Source: Candidatus Moranbacteria bacterium RIFOXYB1_FULL_43_19 (GTDB lineage Bacteria; Patescibacteriota; Minisyncoccia; Moranbacterales; UBA11712). From it: a stretch of 64,000 nt of DNA. Positions 21,403 to 48,215 of the stretch are shown piece by piece. A program made the translations under genes and the position numbers. Location of the stretch: NCBI GenBank assembly GCA_001784875.1, contig MFSH01000015.1, forward strand, positions 47,933 to 111,932, in the 5' to 3' direction. The notes under the pieces were generated by a model. The model saw only the letters and a program-made list of their open reading frames with translations. It searched no databases and was not told the origin of the DNA. How positions within the stretch are numbered: the first letter of the stretch is position 1; every line of letters begins with the position of its first letter.

Positions 21403-22128
21403 ATGGACCAATTCCAAAAAGAAAATAAAACTGAAGAAATAAGGCTTGATGTAAAATCAAAAATCCTTTTTGTCATATTGGGAATTCTTATCGTTGGTTC
21501 GGTCTCGGTGACATACTGGCGCTATATGGTTCAGCGCGATTATATCATCAAGGCCCAGATTAACTGTGATCCGGAAACAGAAAACTGCTTCATTTGGGAA
21601 TGCGACCTGATGTCGCTTGAAGAGGGCGAGGCTTGCACGGGCGTTCCCGACAATGATATCTGGTATTACAAGATATTCAACCGCAACGCGAAAAATATCC
21701 CCGATTGCGATCCGGCGGACGAAAATTGCACAGCTTATGTTTGCGGCGAGGGGGAAGCGGATTGCTCCGAAGAATTATGCAACGCGGAAAATGTCCCCGA
21801 AGGCGAAGAGTGCAGCAATCCCGAACAATATCTTCTCGAAAATCCTCCGATGGATGAAGAGGAGTGCGCCGAGGATGACGAAGAATGCCTGTCAGGATCG
21901 GAAGAAAGTGCAGAAGAGTGTGCTCCCGAAGATGAAGAATGTCTGGCGCAGCAAGAGGCCGCTGAATGTGAAGATGGGGATGAAAAGTGTCTAGCCGAGG
22001 AAGAAAGCCTGGAAAATAATGAAGCGCTGGACGAAATGGAAAAACAGGGAAATCCCAGTGAAGACAAGCCGGGCGAAACAGATTCCGGTGATCCGTATAT
22101 TCCTCCCTTAGGCGCAGAGCCGAACTAA
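21403..22128 (+). CDS. Membrane-anchored, extremely acidic Cys-rich repeat protein (hypothetical)
   Basis: N-terminal TM helix, then about 190 aa containing ten or more Cys in a repeated [D/E]EEC pattern and a very high Glu/Asp content. Confidence 0.5.
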   Translation: MDQFQKENKTEEIRLDVKSKILFVILGILIVGSVSVTYWRYMVQRDYIIKAQINCDPETENCFIWECDLMSLEEGEACTGVPDNDIWYYKIFNRNAKNIPDCDPADENCTAYVCGEGEADCSEELCNAENVPEGEECSNPEQYLLENPPMDEEECAEDDEECLSGSEESAEECAPEDEECLAQQEAAECEDGDEKCLAEEESLENNEALDEMEKQGNPSEDKPGETDSGDPYIPPLGAEPN

Positions 22129-22580: not shown

Positions 22581-23108
22581 TTGGATGCAAATACTATAAA
22601 AAATAAAAGATTCATTCTCCGGAGGCTCAAAATGAGTGACGCAGAATCAATTGTAAAATATGCAAATGATAAACTTGTTGCCAAAAATTTGGCAAGGCTT
22701 CCACATCCTTACACAATAGGAGACGCTAGAGCTTGGCTGAAGAAAAAACAAAATCAATATAAGCAAAAAAATCCCACTGAATTCGTCTTTGCAATCGAAA
22801 TTGAAAATGAAGCGGTGGGTTCAATAGGATTTAATAATATTACTGTTGGGCACAAAGCAGAAATGGGCTATTGGATTGGAAGAAAATATTGGGGTAAAGG
22901 ATTGATGACCGAGGTTGTAAAGAACGCTTCCAGATACGCCTTCAAAGTTTTCAAGCTACGAAGACTTCAGACCTATACTTATCCGAGCAACAAAGCATCT
23001 AAGCGCGTTCTTGAGAAAAATAATTTCAAATTTGAAGGTGTGCTGAAAAAGGGCATCAGAAAAGAAGATATGTTTTTTGATGCTCATATTTTTGCGAAGG
23101 TGTCTTAA
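22581..23108 (+). CDS. GNAT-family N-acetyltransferase (RimJ/RimL-like)
   Basis: GSIGFNNITVGHKAEMGYWIGRKYWGKG acetyl-CoA-binding motif. Confidence 0.7.
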   Translation: MDANTIKNKRFILRRLKMSDAESIVKYANDKLVAKNLARLPHPYTIGDARAWLKKKQNQYKQKNPTEFVFAIEIENEAVGSIGFNNITVGHKAEMGYWIGRKYWGKGLMTEVVKNASRYAFKVFKLRRLQTYTYPSNKASKRVLEKNNFKFEGVLKKGIRKEDMFFDAHIFAKVS

Positions 23109-23133: not shown

Positions 23134-23157
23134 AAGGCTTATATAAAGCCTTTTTTA
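23134..23157 (+). terminator. Rho-independent terminator after the GNAT gene
   Basis: aggctt-atat-aagcct hairpin followed by TTTTTT. Confidence 0.6.
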
Positions 23158-23184: not shown

Positions 23185-23213
23185 TTGACATAAAATAATA
23201 ATTGTGATATTAT
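23185..23213 (+). promoter_or_regulatory. Putative sigma70-type promoter for the 23241-27315 operon
   Basis: TTGACA-17 nt-TATTAT, 28 nt upstream of the start codon. Confidence 0.45.
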
Positions 23214-23240: not shown

Positions 23241-24278
23241 ATGGTCTTGATATCACAAATTTTTGAATTTATTTCGAGCAATTGGCTAATTGTAGCTTTT
23301 TTAGCGCCAATGTCTTGGGCGCTGGTGAACATCATTGATGTTTATTTTGTTGAAGAAATTTATCGAGACGAAGTCGACGGTACAATAATCTCGGGTATTT
23401 TCCAGATACTTCCTTGGATTATCATATTTCCTCTTTTTAACATTAATATTTCTGATTATTTTAGTATAAATTTTGGTTATTATAGTTCTAATAAAATGCA
23501 ATTTTCTTTCTTTATGCATGATTCCCTCCTTTATTCACTCATGGGTGGCCTATTATTTTCATTAGTTTTTTATTTTTATTACAGAGCGCTCTTCAGGCAA
23601 AATGACGTATCTCTTGTCGAGATATTCAATAATTTATCGGTGGTTATTATTCCTTTTGTTGCGTATATTTTTTTTAGAGAAAAATTATCCTTTATCGGTT
23701 ACGTTGGAATGGGTATCACTCTTCTTGGAGCTATGATGTTGATGGGAGATTCGATAGTTAAGAAAAATATCTCATTTAGTCTTCTGAGTACGATGTTTGC
23801 CTGCGCCTTATTCTTATCCTTGAGTCTTGTTTTTGAGGAACATGCTTATTCTATATTGAACGTCCAAGGTCTCGACAATTCAGGTTTTTGGGCTGGTTTC
23901 TTTTTCTTTTCACTTGGGGTTTTTGTGGGTTCGATTATTTTTGCAGTTGTTCATTCTAGAAATATATTGCCTATATTAAGAAAATATACCTATGTTTTTA
24001 TAATTGCAGAAGGTATTTCATTCTTAGGTACGCTTTTTATGCAAAGAGCTCTCGACATCGGGCCATCGGCGTCATTCGTGGTCACCATTGAAACATTTGT
24101 TCCCGCATTTGTTCTGTTGTATAGTATAATTATTGTCTGTGCCTTCCATATTTCCAAGCGTTCAGAAAAAATTGGCCAGATTTTGCCCAATCTCTATAAA
24201 ATGCAGCTAAAAAAACTCGTTCCGAAGATTTTATCAATAGTTATTATGGGGATGGGCGTTTATATTTTTAATCTGTAA
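23241..24278 (+). CDS. Polytopic membrane protein (about 10 TM; possible DMT/EamA-like transporter)
   Basis: 345 aa, repeated hydrophobic helices; only 12 nt before the PRMT-like gene. Confidence 0.45.
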   Translation: MVLISQIFEFISSNWLIVAFLAPMSWALVNIIDVYFVEEIYRDEVDGTIISGIFQILPWIIIFPLFNINISDYFSINFGYYSSNKMQFSFFMHDSLLYSLMGGLLFSLVFYFYYRALFRQNDVSLVEIFNNLSVVIIPFVAYIFFREKLSFIGYVGMGITLLGAMMLMGDSIVKKNISFSLLSTMFACALFLSLSLVFEEHAYSILNVQGLDNSGFWAGFFFFSLGVFVGSIIFAVVHSRNILPILRKYTYVFIIAEGISFLGTLFMQRALDIGPSASFVVTIETFVPAFVLLYSIIIVCAFHISKRSEKIGQILPNLYKMQLKKLVPKILSIVIMGMGVYIFNL

Positions 24279-24290
24279 AATAAGATATAA

Positions 24291-25127
24291 ATGTGTGACG
24301 AAGCATTTAGTTCGATAGATATAGTTCATCAGTGCCTCATAGATGAATCGCGAACCACAGCATTTGCCAGGGCAATAAAAAAACTAGTAAAAAAGGGAGA
24401 CATTGTTATCGATGCCGGAACTGGATCGGGCATTTTGGCGTTATTTGCTGCCAGGGCTGGCGCAAAAAAGGTGATTGCGCTCGAAAACGATGATTTTGTC
24501 GCCGAAATTACAAAAAAAATAGTCGCGGATAATGGATACGAAGACATAATCGACATAAAAATCGGGGATGCAAGAAACTTCAATTTTGGAAAAATTAAAT
24601 TCGACTTGGTTATTATGGAATTATTGACAACAGGAATGATAGATGAATATCAACTTGAAGCGAATAACAATCTTCATAAACAAAAAGTTATTAAGAAATC
24701 AACCATATTTATTCCAAGTCGTGTCGAAACATTTATTTCTCTTGTAAATGCACAATTTGATTTATATGGCTTTAAAATGAAAATGGTAAAACATTTGTGG
24801 AATAATTTATCAGAAAACCAAAAGTATGATATTATTAGTAATGAAAAGGCACTAAACCTGATAAAATTTAATAATAGGAATAAACAGATATTTAAATCCC
24901 TAGTCTCCCTAAAGCCAAAAAAGAATGGAAAGGTGAATGCAATACTATTAAGAAGTAAAACCTATTTATCAAAAGGGATATCTCTTAGTGATACAGAAAC
25001 ATTTAATGCTCCCGTCATAATTCCTTTTGAAGATGAATTTGTCGTAGAAAAAAACAAGAACGAAAAAATAAAAATACAGTATGAATTTGGCAAGGGATAC
25101 CAAACATTTTCAACAAGAAAAAAATGA
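24291..25127 (+). CDS. PRMT-like class I SAM-dependent protein (arginine) methyltransferase
   Basis: Motif I VIDAGTGSGILALFAARAGAKKVIALE, double-E-loop-like VIMELLTTGMIDE; 4-nt ATGA overlap with the next gene. Confidence 0.6.
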   Translation: MCDEAFSSIDIVHQCLIDESRTTAFARAIKKLVKKGDIVIDAGTGSGILALFAARAGAKKVIALENDDFVAEITKKIVADNGYEDIIDIKIGDARNFNFGKIKFDLVIMELLTTGMIDEYQLEANNNLHKQKVIKKSTIFIPSRVETFISLVNAQFDLYGFKMKMVKHLWNNLSENQKYDIISNEKALNLIKFNNRNKQIFKSLVSLKPKKNGKVNAILLRSKTYLSKGISLSDTETFNAPVIIPFEDEFVVEKNKNEKIKIQYEFGKGYQTFSTRKK

Positions 25128-25642
25128 TTCAAAAAAATTTCTCTCTATATAGCGAGAAACTTCACCTAAAAAGAATTGCGGGAGGTGGAAAAGGAATATT
25201 CACAAAGAAAAATATAAAAAAAGGGGAAACTGTGATTGTTTATGGTGGTTACGCAATGACTTCCGAACAACACGCAAAGCTTCCAAAATATATGGAGTAC
25301 TTTTCTTTTCATATTGATGATAATATATTAATAGGCATTAAGAATAAAAAGCAGATATCCTTAGGGGAATATATAAATCATAGTTGCAATCCAAATTGTG
25401 GATTTAGAGACCAATTATTTTTAATCGCTATGAGAGACATAAAGAAAGGAGAAGAAATTACAACTGATTATGCCTTTTTTGTCACTTCAAACACCCTTAC
25501 CTTAAATTGCCAATGCGGTTCGCCTAACTGTAGAGGAGTTATAAGACATACAGACTGGCAATTAAAAAGTTTGCAAAAGAAGTATAAAAAATATTTTCAA
25601 ATTTATATTCAGGAAAAAATAAAAAATAAAAGCAAAAGATGA
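25124..25642 (+). CDS. SET-domain protein (putative protein lysine methyltransferase)
   Basis: NHSCNPNC, EEITTDY and post-SET CQCGSPNC motifs; ATGA overlaps on both sides. Confidence 0.8.
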   Translation: MIQKNFSLYSEKLHLKRIAGGGKGIFTKKNIKKGETVIVYGGYAMTSEQHAKLPKYMEYFSFHIDDNILIGIKNKKQISLGEYINHSCNPNCGFRDQLFLIAMRDIKKGEEITTDYAFFVTSNTLTLNCQCGSPNCRGVIRHTDWQLKSLQKKYKKYFQIYIQEKIKNKSKR

Positions 25643-27315
25643 TAACTTGTCCATGGGAACCAGCAAAGTATCTGATATTTTCTAGTAATGTGCCATCAAT
25701 TCTTTTTTATGCTCTAATTCCCGGAATGATTGTCGGCGCGCTTCTGGGCTTTTTCGTTTATTTAAAAAATAGAAAATATCTTCCTGCATTAATATTGCTA
25801 GTAATTTCAATCCTTTTCTTTGCCTGGGGATTTTTCGATTTAATACTTTTTGCTACAAATAATCCTTTCGCAGTTATAGTTTTATGGGCATACACGATTT
25901 TAACTGAAGTCCTCATTTACGCTTTTAGTCTGTATCTTTCTTACGTTTTCCTATTTAAACGTGATGCTTCTTTAAAAATAAAAGCATTTATCTTTTTTCT
26001 TTTGGCCCCAGTTATCGCAGTTCTTCCAACACCACTTAATCTCAAAGGTGTTAACCTTGCGGATTGCACCGCGATTGAAAATAAATTTATTATCTTTTAC
26101 AGTTACTCATTGGAAATATTTTTTGCATTGCTTATTTTAGCAATGGCTCTTAAGAAGTATCGAATTTCGCGGGATTCTTCAGAAAAAAAGCAAGCAATTC
26201 TATTTGCATTTGGGATTTCCCTGTTTCTTATTACTTTCTCATCCGGAAATATTATCGGAAGTATTACGGGAGACTGGGTTACATCGCAGTATGGTTATTT
26301 TGGCATGCCGATATTTATCGGTTTCCTGGCCTATCTCATCGTGAAATATAAGGCTTTTAATGTGAAGCTGATTGCATCGCAGGCCCTTGTTGTGGGGCTT
26401 ATCATCGGAATCGGCGCGCAGTTTTTCTTTATACAGAATACGACCAACCAAATTTTAACAGCAATTACTCTTGCCATCGCGATAATTTTTGGCTATCAGC
26501 TCGTCCGTTCTGTGAAGCTTGAAGTCCAGCGGAAAGAGGAATTGGAAAAGCTCTCAACATTGCTTGCGCAGGCCAACGACAAACTGCACCAGCTTGACAG
26601 GGCCAAATCGGAATTCATTTCCATTGCATCTCACCAGCTGCGGACGCCGCTCACATCCATCAAGGGCTTCGGGTCTTTGCTTCTTGAAGGGACATACGGC
26701 CAGGTTCCCGATACCCAAAGGCATGCTCTCGAAAAGATATACGTGTCCAATGAGCGCCTGATCCAGCTCGTTGAAGATCTTTTGAACATTTCCCGGATGG
26801 AGGCAGGGAGGATGGAATTTGACTTCCAGGAGGCGCAGATTGAGGATCTGATCCAGGAAGCGGCGGATACTCTTGAGCTTTCTGCCAAAGCCAAGAGCCT
26901 TTATCTCCATTGGCAAAAACCGGCTTTGGCTTTGCCGAAAACAAAAATTGACATCACCAAAATCAAAGAAGTGATTTCAAATATGATCGACAACGCTATC
27001 AAATATTCGCAAAGGGGCGGGGTGACTGTGCGGGCGGAAAAAGGGAGTTTCTTTGACCATGAAGCGAGAGAACAAAAAAATGTCATCCGCGTCACCGTTT
27101 CTGATACGGGAATCGGCATGGACAAGGAGGAACTGGAAAGCATCTTCAACAAATTCGAGCGGGGGAAGCAGGTGAGCCACTATCACACCGACGGGACAGG
27201 GCTTGGGATGTACGTCGGCAAGAAAATAGTCGAGGCCCACCATGGGCGCATCTGGGCTGAATCAGATGGAAAAGGAAAGGGGAGCCGTTTTATTTTGGAA
27301 TTGCCAATTAGTTAG
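25639..27315 (+). CDS. Sensor histidine kinase with an N-terminal 7-8 TM domain
   Basis: H-box SHQLRTPLTSIKGF, N-box and G2 GTGLGMYVGKKIVEAHHG; multi-TM N-terminus. Confidence 0.85.
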   Translation: MITCPWEPAKYLIFSSNVPSILFYALIPGMIVGALLGFFVYLKNRKYLPALILLVISILFFAWGFFDLILFATNNPFAVIVLWAYTILTEVLIYAFSLYLSYVFLFKRDASLKIKAFIFFLLAPVIAVLPTPLNLKGVNLADCTAIENKFIIFYSYSLEIFFALLILAMALKKYRISRDSSEKKQAILFAFGISLFLITFSSGNIIGSITGDWVTSQYGYFGMPIFIGFLAYLIVKYKAFNVKLIASQALVVGLIIGIGAQFFFIQNTTNQILTAITLAIAIIFGYQLVRSVKLEVQRKEELEKLSTLLAQANDKLHQLDRAKSEFISIASHQLRTPLTSIKGFGSLLLEGTYGQVPDTQRHALEKIYVSNERLIQLVEDLLNISRMEAGRMEFDFQEAQIEDLIQEAADTLELSAKAKSLYLHWQKPALALPKTKIDITKIKEVISNMIDNAIKYSQRGGVTVRAEKGSFFDHEAREQKNVIRVTVSDTGIGMDKEELESIFNKFERGKQVSHYHTDGTGLGMYVGKKIVEAHHGRIWAESDGKGKGSRFILELPIS

Positions 27316-47470: not shown

Positions 47471-48130
47471 GTTAGTTAAGGCCGGATAACCGCCTCGGTG
47501 TCTACGAATTACGAATCAAATACAAATATACGAATACTAAAAATTAGTAATTCGTATATTCGTAAAGCGAAGCGTATTAGTAATTCGTAGACATCTGGGA
47601 GGAAAGTCCGGACACCTGCTGATGCTGCGCATCAGCAAAGGGGCAATGGATAACACCCATCGGGCGCAGTGAAAACTGCGCTTAGGGAAAGTGTCCCCCT
47701 CACGGGGGATCTCCCGCAAGGGAGGCCACAGAGACTATACGACCCGCCCAAGTTTTTGACTTTTGAAGAGGTCCGACCGCGCGACCAAAAAAGAATGCGG
47801 ACGGACCTCGTCAAAAACTTGGGCGGACAAAGGTGAAAAGCGGGTTGATGTTAGATATCTTGCTCACGTGAAATATTTAGCTGCAACTCGAATCGACCGG
47901 TGACGGTCGAAGTTTGGCAAACCCTGCCTGGTGCAAGCCTGAGCCTCGATTCTATATCGGGGAAGGCGCTTGATCCCGACGGTAACGCCGGGGCTAGATA
48001 AATGGTTATCTCATCCCTCACCACTTTTTGTGAATTTATTCCCAAATATTTTCTTGAGGCAGTAAGAATTTTATTCAGTGAAAGTGGTGAGGGATAAGAC
48101 AGAATCCGGCTTACAGGCCTTAGCTAACAT
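47471..48130 (+). ncRNA. rnpB: RNase P RNA, bacterial type A, with expanded P3, P12 and a 3'-domain insertion helix
   Basis: P1 pairing GTTAGTTAAGGCC / GGCCTTAGCTAAC; P4 GGAGGAAAGTCCGGAC and ACAGAATCCGGCTTA; ACAGAGA...CCGCC; AAAGGTGAAAAG; GGCTAGATAAATGG; terminal T-run. Confidence 0.75.
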
Positions 48131-48215
48131 TTTTTTACGAATAACGAATTTATTTTTTTATTCGTAATTCGTATATTCGTAAAGCGAAGCGTATTCGTAA
48201 TTTGTTGAGATCTTC

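Follow-up and report, generated by a model that had tools for sequence, protein, structure and literature searches.

Low-density lipoprotein receptor class A (LDLa) and thrombospondin type-3 (TSP3) modules bind Ca2+ via short disulfide-closed loops that carry fixed carboxylates. The gene described here is located at positions 21403..22128 on the + strand of a 64,000-nt stretch of contig MFSH01000015.1 from Candidatus Moranbacteria bacterium RIFOXYB1_FULL_43_19 (this whole stretch is referred to as the window hereafter); it starts with ATG and encodes 241 amino acids followed by a stop codon. Its product resembles these modules, and those of the cbEGF type, in having short loops apparently closed by Cys pairs, positionally conserved Asp and Glu residues, tandem reiteration, little regular secondary structure and a location that is favored to be extracellular. 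However, its family shows neither a sequence match nor a fold match to them, and Ca2+ binding by it is putative. The spacing is Cx6C/Cx10C with C-D-P-x-D-E-x-C, in contrast to the DxDxDG or CDGxxDC of the known Ca2+ modules, and the latter belong to eukaryotic extracellular proteins, whereas the present family is restricted to Patescibacteria. As for membership in the LDLa, TSP3, cbEGF or Excalibur families, their family-specific spacing and ligand motif are absent, and there is no Pfam match.

Comparison can also be made with other envelope components. The lipoteichoic acid of Gram-positive bacteria provides a functional analogy only: it is likewise a membrane-anchored, extended polyanion that lies on the outer face of the cytoplasmic membrane in a monoderm-type cell and is suited to the binding of divalent cations and protons, but it is a glycolipid-anchored polyol-phosphate polymer, whereas the present molecule is a protein with carboxylate charge and with a folded domain ahead of the polyanion. 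YycH and YycI are bitopic proteins that modulate WalK, and single-pass ancillary proteins also serve transporters. An N-terminal transmembrane (TM) helix, a putative extracytoplasmic domain and, in some genomes, a nearby two-component system are common to YycH/YycI and our protein; nevertheless, no sequence or fold similarity is found, and the gene is only loosely linked to that of the kinase, with unrelated genes in between. Finally, the MdbA/VKOR substrates of Actinobacteria are exported monoderm proteins that fold via extracytoplasmic disulfides, as our protein may do. The known substrates are, however, pilins and toxins of unrelated folds, and a substrate role is suggested here only by the topology and the Cys pattern.

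The ten-cysteine core and its family

The protein departs strongly from the other 56 open reading frames (ORFs) of at least 120 amino acids in the window: its 16 Cys residues account for 6.6% of the sequence against 0.99% elsewhere (binomial P ~4e-9), and its 68 Asp and Glu residues account for 28% against 11.5% (P ~2e-12). An earlier note, made from the letters alone, had described a membrane-anchored, hyper-acidic, Cys-rich protein. This description holds: a single TM segment is followed by an ectodomain of 202 residues, which contains 63 Asp and Glu residues against 9 Lys and Arg residues (net charge −54) and all 16 Cys residues.

The most conserved part of the ectodomain is its juxtamembrane portion of about 105 amino acids, residues 46-150 (21538..21852, + strand), as delimited by the alignments and the AlphaFold2 (AF2) models. 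This core has a net charge of −22 and carries 10 Cys residues (55, 62, 67, 78, 102, 109, 114, 121, 126 and 137) in the pattern Cx6C-x4-Cx10C ... Cx6C-x4-Cx6C-x4-Cx10C, together with three C-D-P motifs and the W87-Y88-Y89 strand. Family alignments of 26, 97 and 149 members and a MAFFT alignment of 346 sequences were examined. In the last of these, all ten core Cys residues are kept in 324 of 344 homologues; C67 and C78 are jointly missing in 6 sequences, via deletion of that loop, and C126 and C137 are jointly missing in 1 sequence. The low-complexity drift that the earlier note had allowed for is thus not borne out by the Cys positions. The invariant or nearly invariant residues are D46-Y47, D56-P57, E60, F63, W65, D68-P69, G75-E76 and T79-G80 in the first half, and D85, W87-Y88-Y89, R94, A96, P100, D103-P104, D106-E107, E118, P140, Y143 and N147-P148 in the second half. 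The consensus is C-D-P-x-T-E-x-C-F for core loop 1 (D in 95% and E in 82%), C-D-P-N-D-E-N-C for loop 2 and C-x-E-G-E-x-D-C for loop 3 (E in 96%); the acidic residues in the loops are conserved by position and are not merely abundant. Many members are only 120-160 amino acids long, consisting of the TM helix and the core with almost no tail. The alignments show that the conserved heart of the family is the TM helix plus the folded ten-Cys core, not the acidic repeat.

When the full-length protein was modeled with the 97-sequence alignment, the predicted local distance difference test (pLDDT) values ranged from 86 to 97 over residues 11-150 and from 47 to 68 over the tail. The core alone, modeled with the diverse 149-sequence alignment, reached a pLDDT of 93 and a predicted TM-score (pTM) of 0.79; AlphaFold modeling was one of the checks that the earlier note had named. 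The core model comprises a small sheet (strands 48-54, 63-66, 86-95 and 122-124), a short helix (140-146) and long irregular loops bearing the Cys residues. With E ≤ 1e-3 as the criterion for a match, Foldseek gave no significant match in two runs against PDB (best E 3.7 and 5, TM-score ≤ 0.17) or in the search of BFVD (best E 2.7). The core is therefore best described as a fold predicted at high confidence without a detectable relative, while the low AF2 confidence suggests that the acidic tail is probably disordered.

The gene belongs to a large, undescribed, Patescibacteria-restricted family that is unnamed in the curated libraries. A word-indexed search yielded 193 homologues at E ≤ 0.01, all unnamed or "hypothetical", and the named sources among them were metagenome-assembled genomes (MAGs) of Moranbacteria, Parcubacteria or Patescibacteria; a second such search with the diverse alignment returned only unnamed proteins. 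When 1.84 billion cluster representatives at 50% identity were searched exhaustively with a profile, 772 passed E ≤ 1e-3; 405 of these also passed 1e-10 and 106 passed 1e-30, the E-value reaching 1e-84 for close homologues. In a scan of species-representative genomes, 80 loci were found, nearly all titled Moraniibacteriota, Parcubacteria or Patescibacteria. The absence of a characterized family, as stated in the earlier note, was confirmed in Pfam, NCBIfam, PADLOC and PHROGs (0 families at E ≤ 1 in each), in a sequence-profile search of PDB (0 matches at E ≤ 10) and in the Foldseek searches of PDB and BFVD above. A Pfam scan of 149 members produced scattered sub-threshold noise only (most frequently ADAM_CR, 3/149), a Pfam scan of 10 longer members was uninformative (a weak PsbP_2 match in one C-terminal extension), and literature searches on the family found nothing. 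The family signature reads D-x-K-S-K, TM helix, (K/R)DY, C-D-P-x2-E-x-C-F-x3-C-D-P...C-T-G...W-Y-Y-K...C-D-P-x-D-E-x-C-x4-C-x3-E-x2-C-x4-C-x10-C-x-D/N-P, and every invariant column of the 26- and 97-member alignments is present in the protein. What is new here is the family, which is undescribed, and apparently also its predicted fold; novelty of mechanism is not claimed.

Some of the family members are located on contigs with unexpected titles. Contigs titled "uncultured Bdellovibrionales bacterium" (L017, L019, L020, L023, L029, L043, L057 and others) carry the family and share neighboring genes with the Patescibacteria loci, and a 5.6-kb contig in an "Aquabacterium" bin (L056) also carries it; these titles are probably placeholder taxonomy or bin contamination. 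Two copies that are 59% identical (L033:376-825 and L068:8001-8480) occur on separate contigs of one MAG (JBAQNU01), which suggests that some genomes possess paralogues. A near-identical copy (cluster representative P0001; gene 113-838 of L090, an ENA contig of 3272 bp) has Gly in place of the invariant Cys121. Since the exact sequence of the window is present on at least 23 contigs, this variant is either rare or an assembly error.

Membrane topology and the acidic tail

Residues 1-20 (21403..21462, + strand), which we take to be cytoplasmic, form a mixed-charge segment in which D16, K18 and K20 are conserved in the alignments; it ends with D-V-K-S-K (conserved as D-x-K-S-K) right before the TM helix. 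The single hydrophobic TM segment, recognized both from the AF2 model and by reading the sequence, is residues 21-39 (ILFVILGILIVGSVSVTYW; 21463..21519, + strand), and the AF2 helix spans residues 17-43 with pLDDT values of 87-97. Direct reading of the translation found neither a lipobox (LxxC) nor a class III prepilin motif (G|FTLxE): the N-terminus MDQFQKENKTEEIRLDVKSK leads into the TM helix without Gly-Phe or Cys. An LPXTG sortase signal with a TM segment and a basic tail is also absent, the C-terminus ...YIPPLGAEPN having no hydrophobic segment. The TM segment is probably an uncleaved signal anchor. As for its orientation, in 75% of 324 members the 15 residues ahead of the TM segment are more positive than the 15 that follow, and in 14% the two flanks are equal; in members with 140-residue N-terminal extensions (P0225 and P0256), the helix is immediately preceded by a stretch very rich in Lys and Arg. 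Because of this charge bias and these extensions, an N-in/C-out topology that places all the Cys residues outside is favored, in agreement with the extracellular location supposed in the earlier note.

The hyper-acidic tail, residues 151-241 (21853..22125, + strand), is the region of low AF2 confidence and contains 37 Asp and Glu against 3 Lys and Arg residues (net charge −34). Three Cx6C units are found in it: C155-AEDDEE-C162 (21865..21888), C173-APEDEE-C180 (21919..21942) and C189-EDGDEK-C196 (21967..21990), all on the + strand. The earlier note had placed at least ten Cys residues in a recurring [D/E]-E-E-C spacing and had regarded the acidic repeat as the key feature. The literal motif occurs only three times in the protein, and only 6 Cys residues lie in the acidic repeat, the other 10 being in the folded core; moreover, the number of units varies from 0 to 5 across the family, and many members have none. 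The tail has a median length of 68 amino acids (range 4-192) and consists on average of 37% Asp and Glu and 2% Lys and Arg. Its Cys count is 0, 2, 4, 6, 8 or 10 in 97.8% of members, mostly in the form of Cx6C units. The unit consensus is E-E-C-A-(E/P)-(D/G)-D-E-E-C-L (D 85%, E 63%, E 72%), and in sequence the unit looks like a reiterated core loop, C-D-P-x-D-E-x-C. At the DNA level the three units are 56-69% identical to one another, and Tandem Repeats Finder reported no tandem repeat in the gene; recent slippage as the origin of the repeat was rejected on this ground.

At the extreme C-terminus, the motif YIPPLGAEPN (22096..22125, + strand) was recognized from a sub-clade alignment. About 20 of the 346 sequences, including that of the window, end with N-[IV]-P-P-[PL]-G-[AV]-[EQ]-P-[MNQ] and then stop, behind the variable tail. 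PPP and PPG are EF-P-dependent stalling-type sequences, and such sequences are present in the motif of this sub-clade. An arrest peptide of the MifM/SecM/VemP/RAPP class was nevertheless rejected: the gene downstream differs between loci and in no case belongs to secretion, and the large conserved folded domain also opposes this interpretation. The motif could be a docking peptide.

Probable cysteine pairing and candidate functions

Successive Cys residues of the protein are spaced by 6, 4, 10, 23, 6, 4, 6, 4, 10, 17, 6, 10, 6, 8 and 6 residues. The earlier note had recognized a block beginning with CxxxxxC and ending with CxxC; the first block is instead Cx6C-x4-Cx10C, and a check of the translation found no CxxC anywhere in the protein, nor any CxC or CC cluster. 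The five consecutive core pairs (Cx6C, Cx10C, Cx6C, Cx6C and Cx10C) most likely close five short disulfide loops, a map that we infer from the spacing and the co-loss. Disulfides between neighbors would be the simplest interpretation because CxxC is lacking, the 10 core Cys residues are not divisible into Cys4 sets, Cys residues are lost in pairs and the tail counts proceed in twos. Zinc-ribbon or Fe-S sites, the latter having been among the roles considered in the earlier note, are unlikely on the same grounds of missing CxxC, indivisibility into Cys4 and tail steps of two. In bacteria of the candidate phyla radiation (CPR), enrichment of an MdbA-like thiol-disulfide oxidoreductase together with VKOR has been reported (PMC6744442). 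No MdbA/VKOR-type gene was found in the 64-kb window, a result that is uninformative for a piece of that size.

These features can be combined into a model. A short cytoplasmic N-terminus and one signal-anchor helix would leave the C-terminal 200 residues outside the cytoplasmic membrane, where the first ~105 would fold into a compact and strongly acidic domain that lies close to the membrane and contains a small β-sheet, its disulfide loops being made by the MdbA/VKOR-type oxidative folding machinery of CPR. The disordered polyanionic tail would repeat a miniature core loop (E-E-C-A-P-D-D-E-E-C-L), three times in this protein and 0-5 times in the family. Because the carboxylates are positionally conserved in the loops and the net charge is extreme, divalent-cation binding and a role in surface charge are suggested: with fixed Asp and Glu residues in disulfide-closed loops and a net charge of −54, the protein may be a membrane-tethered polyanion that binds Ca2+ or Mg2+ and sets the envelope surface charge. 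The folded core would be the constant part, possibly binding a ligand or a partner, and the tail a fast-evolving spacer or cation sponge. The anatomy by itself, namely a bitopic protein whose extracytoplasmic Cys-stapled acidic core is followed by a disordered polyanionic tail in which the number of Cx6C copies varies, is very probably correct. The complete explanation as a disulfide-stapled, cation-binding polyanionic envelope protein accounts best for the sequence data as a whole and is proposed tentatively.

Several points weigh against this explanation. Duplication of a two-Cys unit by itself yields even Cys counts in the tail, and C67 and C78 are lost together through the deletion of a loop; disulfide chemistry is proven by neither observation. 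Anoxic groundwater is the habitat of many of these organisms, and external thiols could stay reduced there. No homologue of known function supports cation binding, and no canonical Ca2+ motif (DxDxDG, EF-hand, LDLa, TSP3 or Excalibur) is present, Pfam finding none in the protein or in the 149 members. The strongly conserved aromatic residues W65, W87, Y88, Y89 and Y143 suggest that the core may bind a partner or a glycan, not ions. Finally, many members have a short tail or none, and therefore the tail cannot carry the essential function.

Among the alternatives, it was considered whether the protein serves a co-localized multi-TM histidine kinase or MFS/EamA transporter as an accessory or sensor subunit, and the arrangement of the loci bears directly on this. 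In the window, the gene order is lytB-proS-glyA-[this gene]-speH-GNAT. A terminator-like hairpin (23134-23152) lies after GNAT and is followed by a strong promoter-like site (23185-23213). The genes beyond this site encode a membrane protein of the EamA type, a methyltransferase resembling PrmA, a protein with a SET domain and a histidine kinase with multiple TM segments. The kinase has 8-9 predicted TM segments and no sizeable outside domain; the TM helix and small ectodomain of our protein would pair with it, as YycH/YycI do with WalK, or with the MFS/EamA transporter next in line. Across the family, the upstream side of the loci is highly variable, in contrast to a recurring downstream block of this gene, MFS or EamA (alternately), purD/c15/speH/SET and HisKA (L010-L089 flanks; 23241-27315 in the window), where c15 is a 265-residue cytoplasmic protein. 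Where the flanks extend for at least 6 kb in both directions (42 loci), HisKA occurs within 6 kb in 25, MFS in 20, purD in 15 and speH in 6; HisKA and MFS both persist in 13 of the 23 most divergent loci. HisKA-RR is located directly upstream of the gene in four lineages: in L008/L009 the gene starts 25 nt after HisKA-RR, and a similar order is seen in L034, L065 and L078. However, unrelated housekeeping genes (purD, speH, glyA and SET) intervene, and the immediate neighbors differ widely: in 81 loci, the next gene downstream is MFS in 12, PALP in 8, purD in 6, EamA in 5 and speH in 2. In addition, housekeeping genes such as purD, ispG and proS co-localize comparably, so that synteny inherited within one lineage could be responsible; the terminator-like and promoter-like pair in the window splits the unit of this gene from the EamA gene; and the "HisKA" BLAST cluster may mix paralogues. 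NCBIfam gave generic assignments only for the neighboring MFS, EamA, c15 and histidine kinase genes. A kinase or transporter link is possible and inseparable from inherited synteny, and an accessory-subunit function is considered rather unlikely.

The protein could instead act at the surface of an episymbiotic CPR cell, as an adhesin or in the interaction with a host, with the Cys-stapled core as the binding module that is either borne by a fast-evolving acidic stalk or accompanied by it. The extracytoplasmic topology, the conserved aromatic patch (W65/W87/Y88/Y89/Y143) and the 59%-identical paralogues of some genomes would fit such a function, as would the tail, which varies strongly in length and copy number like those of many surface proteins. 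Nevertheless, the folded domain is membrane-proximal and the tail distal, whereas a stalk-and-head adhesin has the opposite arrangement; the core, with 50-80% identity across many species, is far more conserved than usual host-specific adhesins; and the gene is placed among housekeeping genes. An adhesin is thus an improbable account of the family.

Less probable again is the binding of soft metals (Fe, Zn, Cu, Cd or Ni) by reduced thiols of the Cys pairs in an anoxic habitat, as in a phytochelatin- or metallothionein-like Glu-Cys sponge or a metallochaperone; metal chaperoning had been among the candidate roles of the earlier note. Although 16 Cys residues are set in a Glu-rich sequence and the source metagenomes are, according to the record names, groundwater or aquifer samples, there are no CxxC, CxC or CC clusters, the Cys content of 6.6% is far below metallothionein density, AF2 builds a confident fold without any metal, Cys counts proceed in twos and not in fours, and CPR encode extracytoplasmic disulfide-forming enzymes (PMC6744442). 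We regard this function as doubtful.

The earlier note had also pointed out that the gene sits directly upstream of speH (AdoMet decarboxylase). This is correct for the window, where a gap of 14 nt separates the ORF from speH and co-transcription with speH and the GNAT gene is probable, and a polyamine-related role, such as a surface polyanion that binds spermidine, could be imagined from it. The adjacency is, however, incidental: the 2/81 and 6/42 counts for speH given above show an unconserved linkage, and close relatives differ in how speH, glyA and GNAT are placed with respect to the gene. Such a role is very improbable and largely refuted.

The reading frame is sound, since homologues align end to end and the identical protein is called on at least 23 contigs of independent assemblies, including NCBI GCA_001784775.1; the frame error that the earlier note had considered is thereby removed, and the peptide EECAEDDEECLSGSEESAEECAPEDEECLAQQEAAECEDGDEKCLAEE quoted there is found letter for letter in the translation. 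That the ORF is spurious, or consists of low-complexity sequence that drifts unconstrained, is already refuted and hardly credible: the GA-rich codons do yield a long antisense ORF (21735..22067, − strand), i.e., a compositional bias, but hundreds of homologues with invariant Cys, Trp, Tyr and Pro positions, the confident AF2 model of the core, the full-length alignments and the absence of a DNA tandem repeat all oppose it. This antisense ORF encodes 110 amino acids and is Ser-rich, and another long ORF overlaps the gene in a different frame (21617-21994, + strand, 125 amino acids). Antisense ORFs of the former kind cluster across the loci of the family. The overlapping ORFs are artefacts of the GAA/GAG/GAT-rich coding sequence, not genes.

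Other features of the window and significance

Other observations were made in the window. Upstream of the histidine kinase, at 24291-25642, a PrmA/TRM5-like class I methyltransferase (278 amino acids) and a SET-domain protein (172 amino acids) are encoded with a 4-nt overlap, and this pair is also present in related loci. For the GNAT gene (22581-23108), the longest ORF starts from TTG and encodes 175 amino acids, while the calls on identical contigs give 158 amino acids; translation probably begins from the downstream ATG at ~22632. At 47544-48131 (+ strand), in an ORF-free gap of ~820 nt, a full-length match to the bacterial RNase P class A RNA was found (model positions 1-367, E=3e-28). 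It spans 588 nt, including ~220 nt of insertions, and its 91.3 bits fall just short of the Rfam gathering score of 100, so that a search at the gathering threshold misses it.

In Patescibacteria/CPR genomes, about half of the genes have no assigned function, and because few of these bacteria are cultured, their envelope biology is almost unknown. Uncharacterized families are thus common in CPR genomes. The present family is, however, large (772 clusters at 50% identity), lineage-restricted and strongly constrained, and its ectodomain of about 105 amino acids is an expressible target. A far-reaching and rather unlikely extension of the proposed explanation is that the family is a protein-based counterpart of lipoteichoic acid built on a new fold. 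The disulfide-closed C-D-P-x-D-E-x-C loops of this membrane-anchored polyanion would be an undescribed Ca2+/Mg2+-binding module, and by its repetition ultra-small Patescibacteria, whose envelope biosynthesis is reduced, would adjust how many cations the envelope can take up. If the protein were to partner the neighboring kinase or transporter, it would be a CPR-specific sensory or transport accessory. If the acidic Cx6C loops bind divalent cations, they would represent a new minimal Ca2+/Mg2+ module and provide a clue to how these bacteria manage their surface charge.

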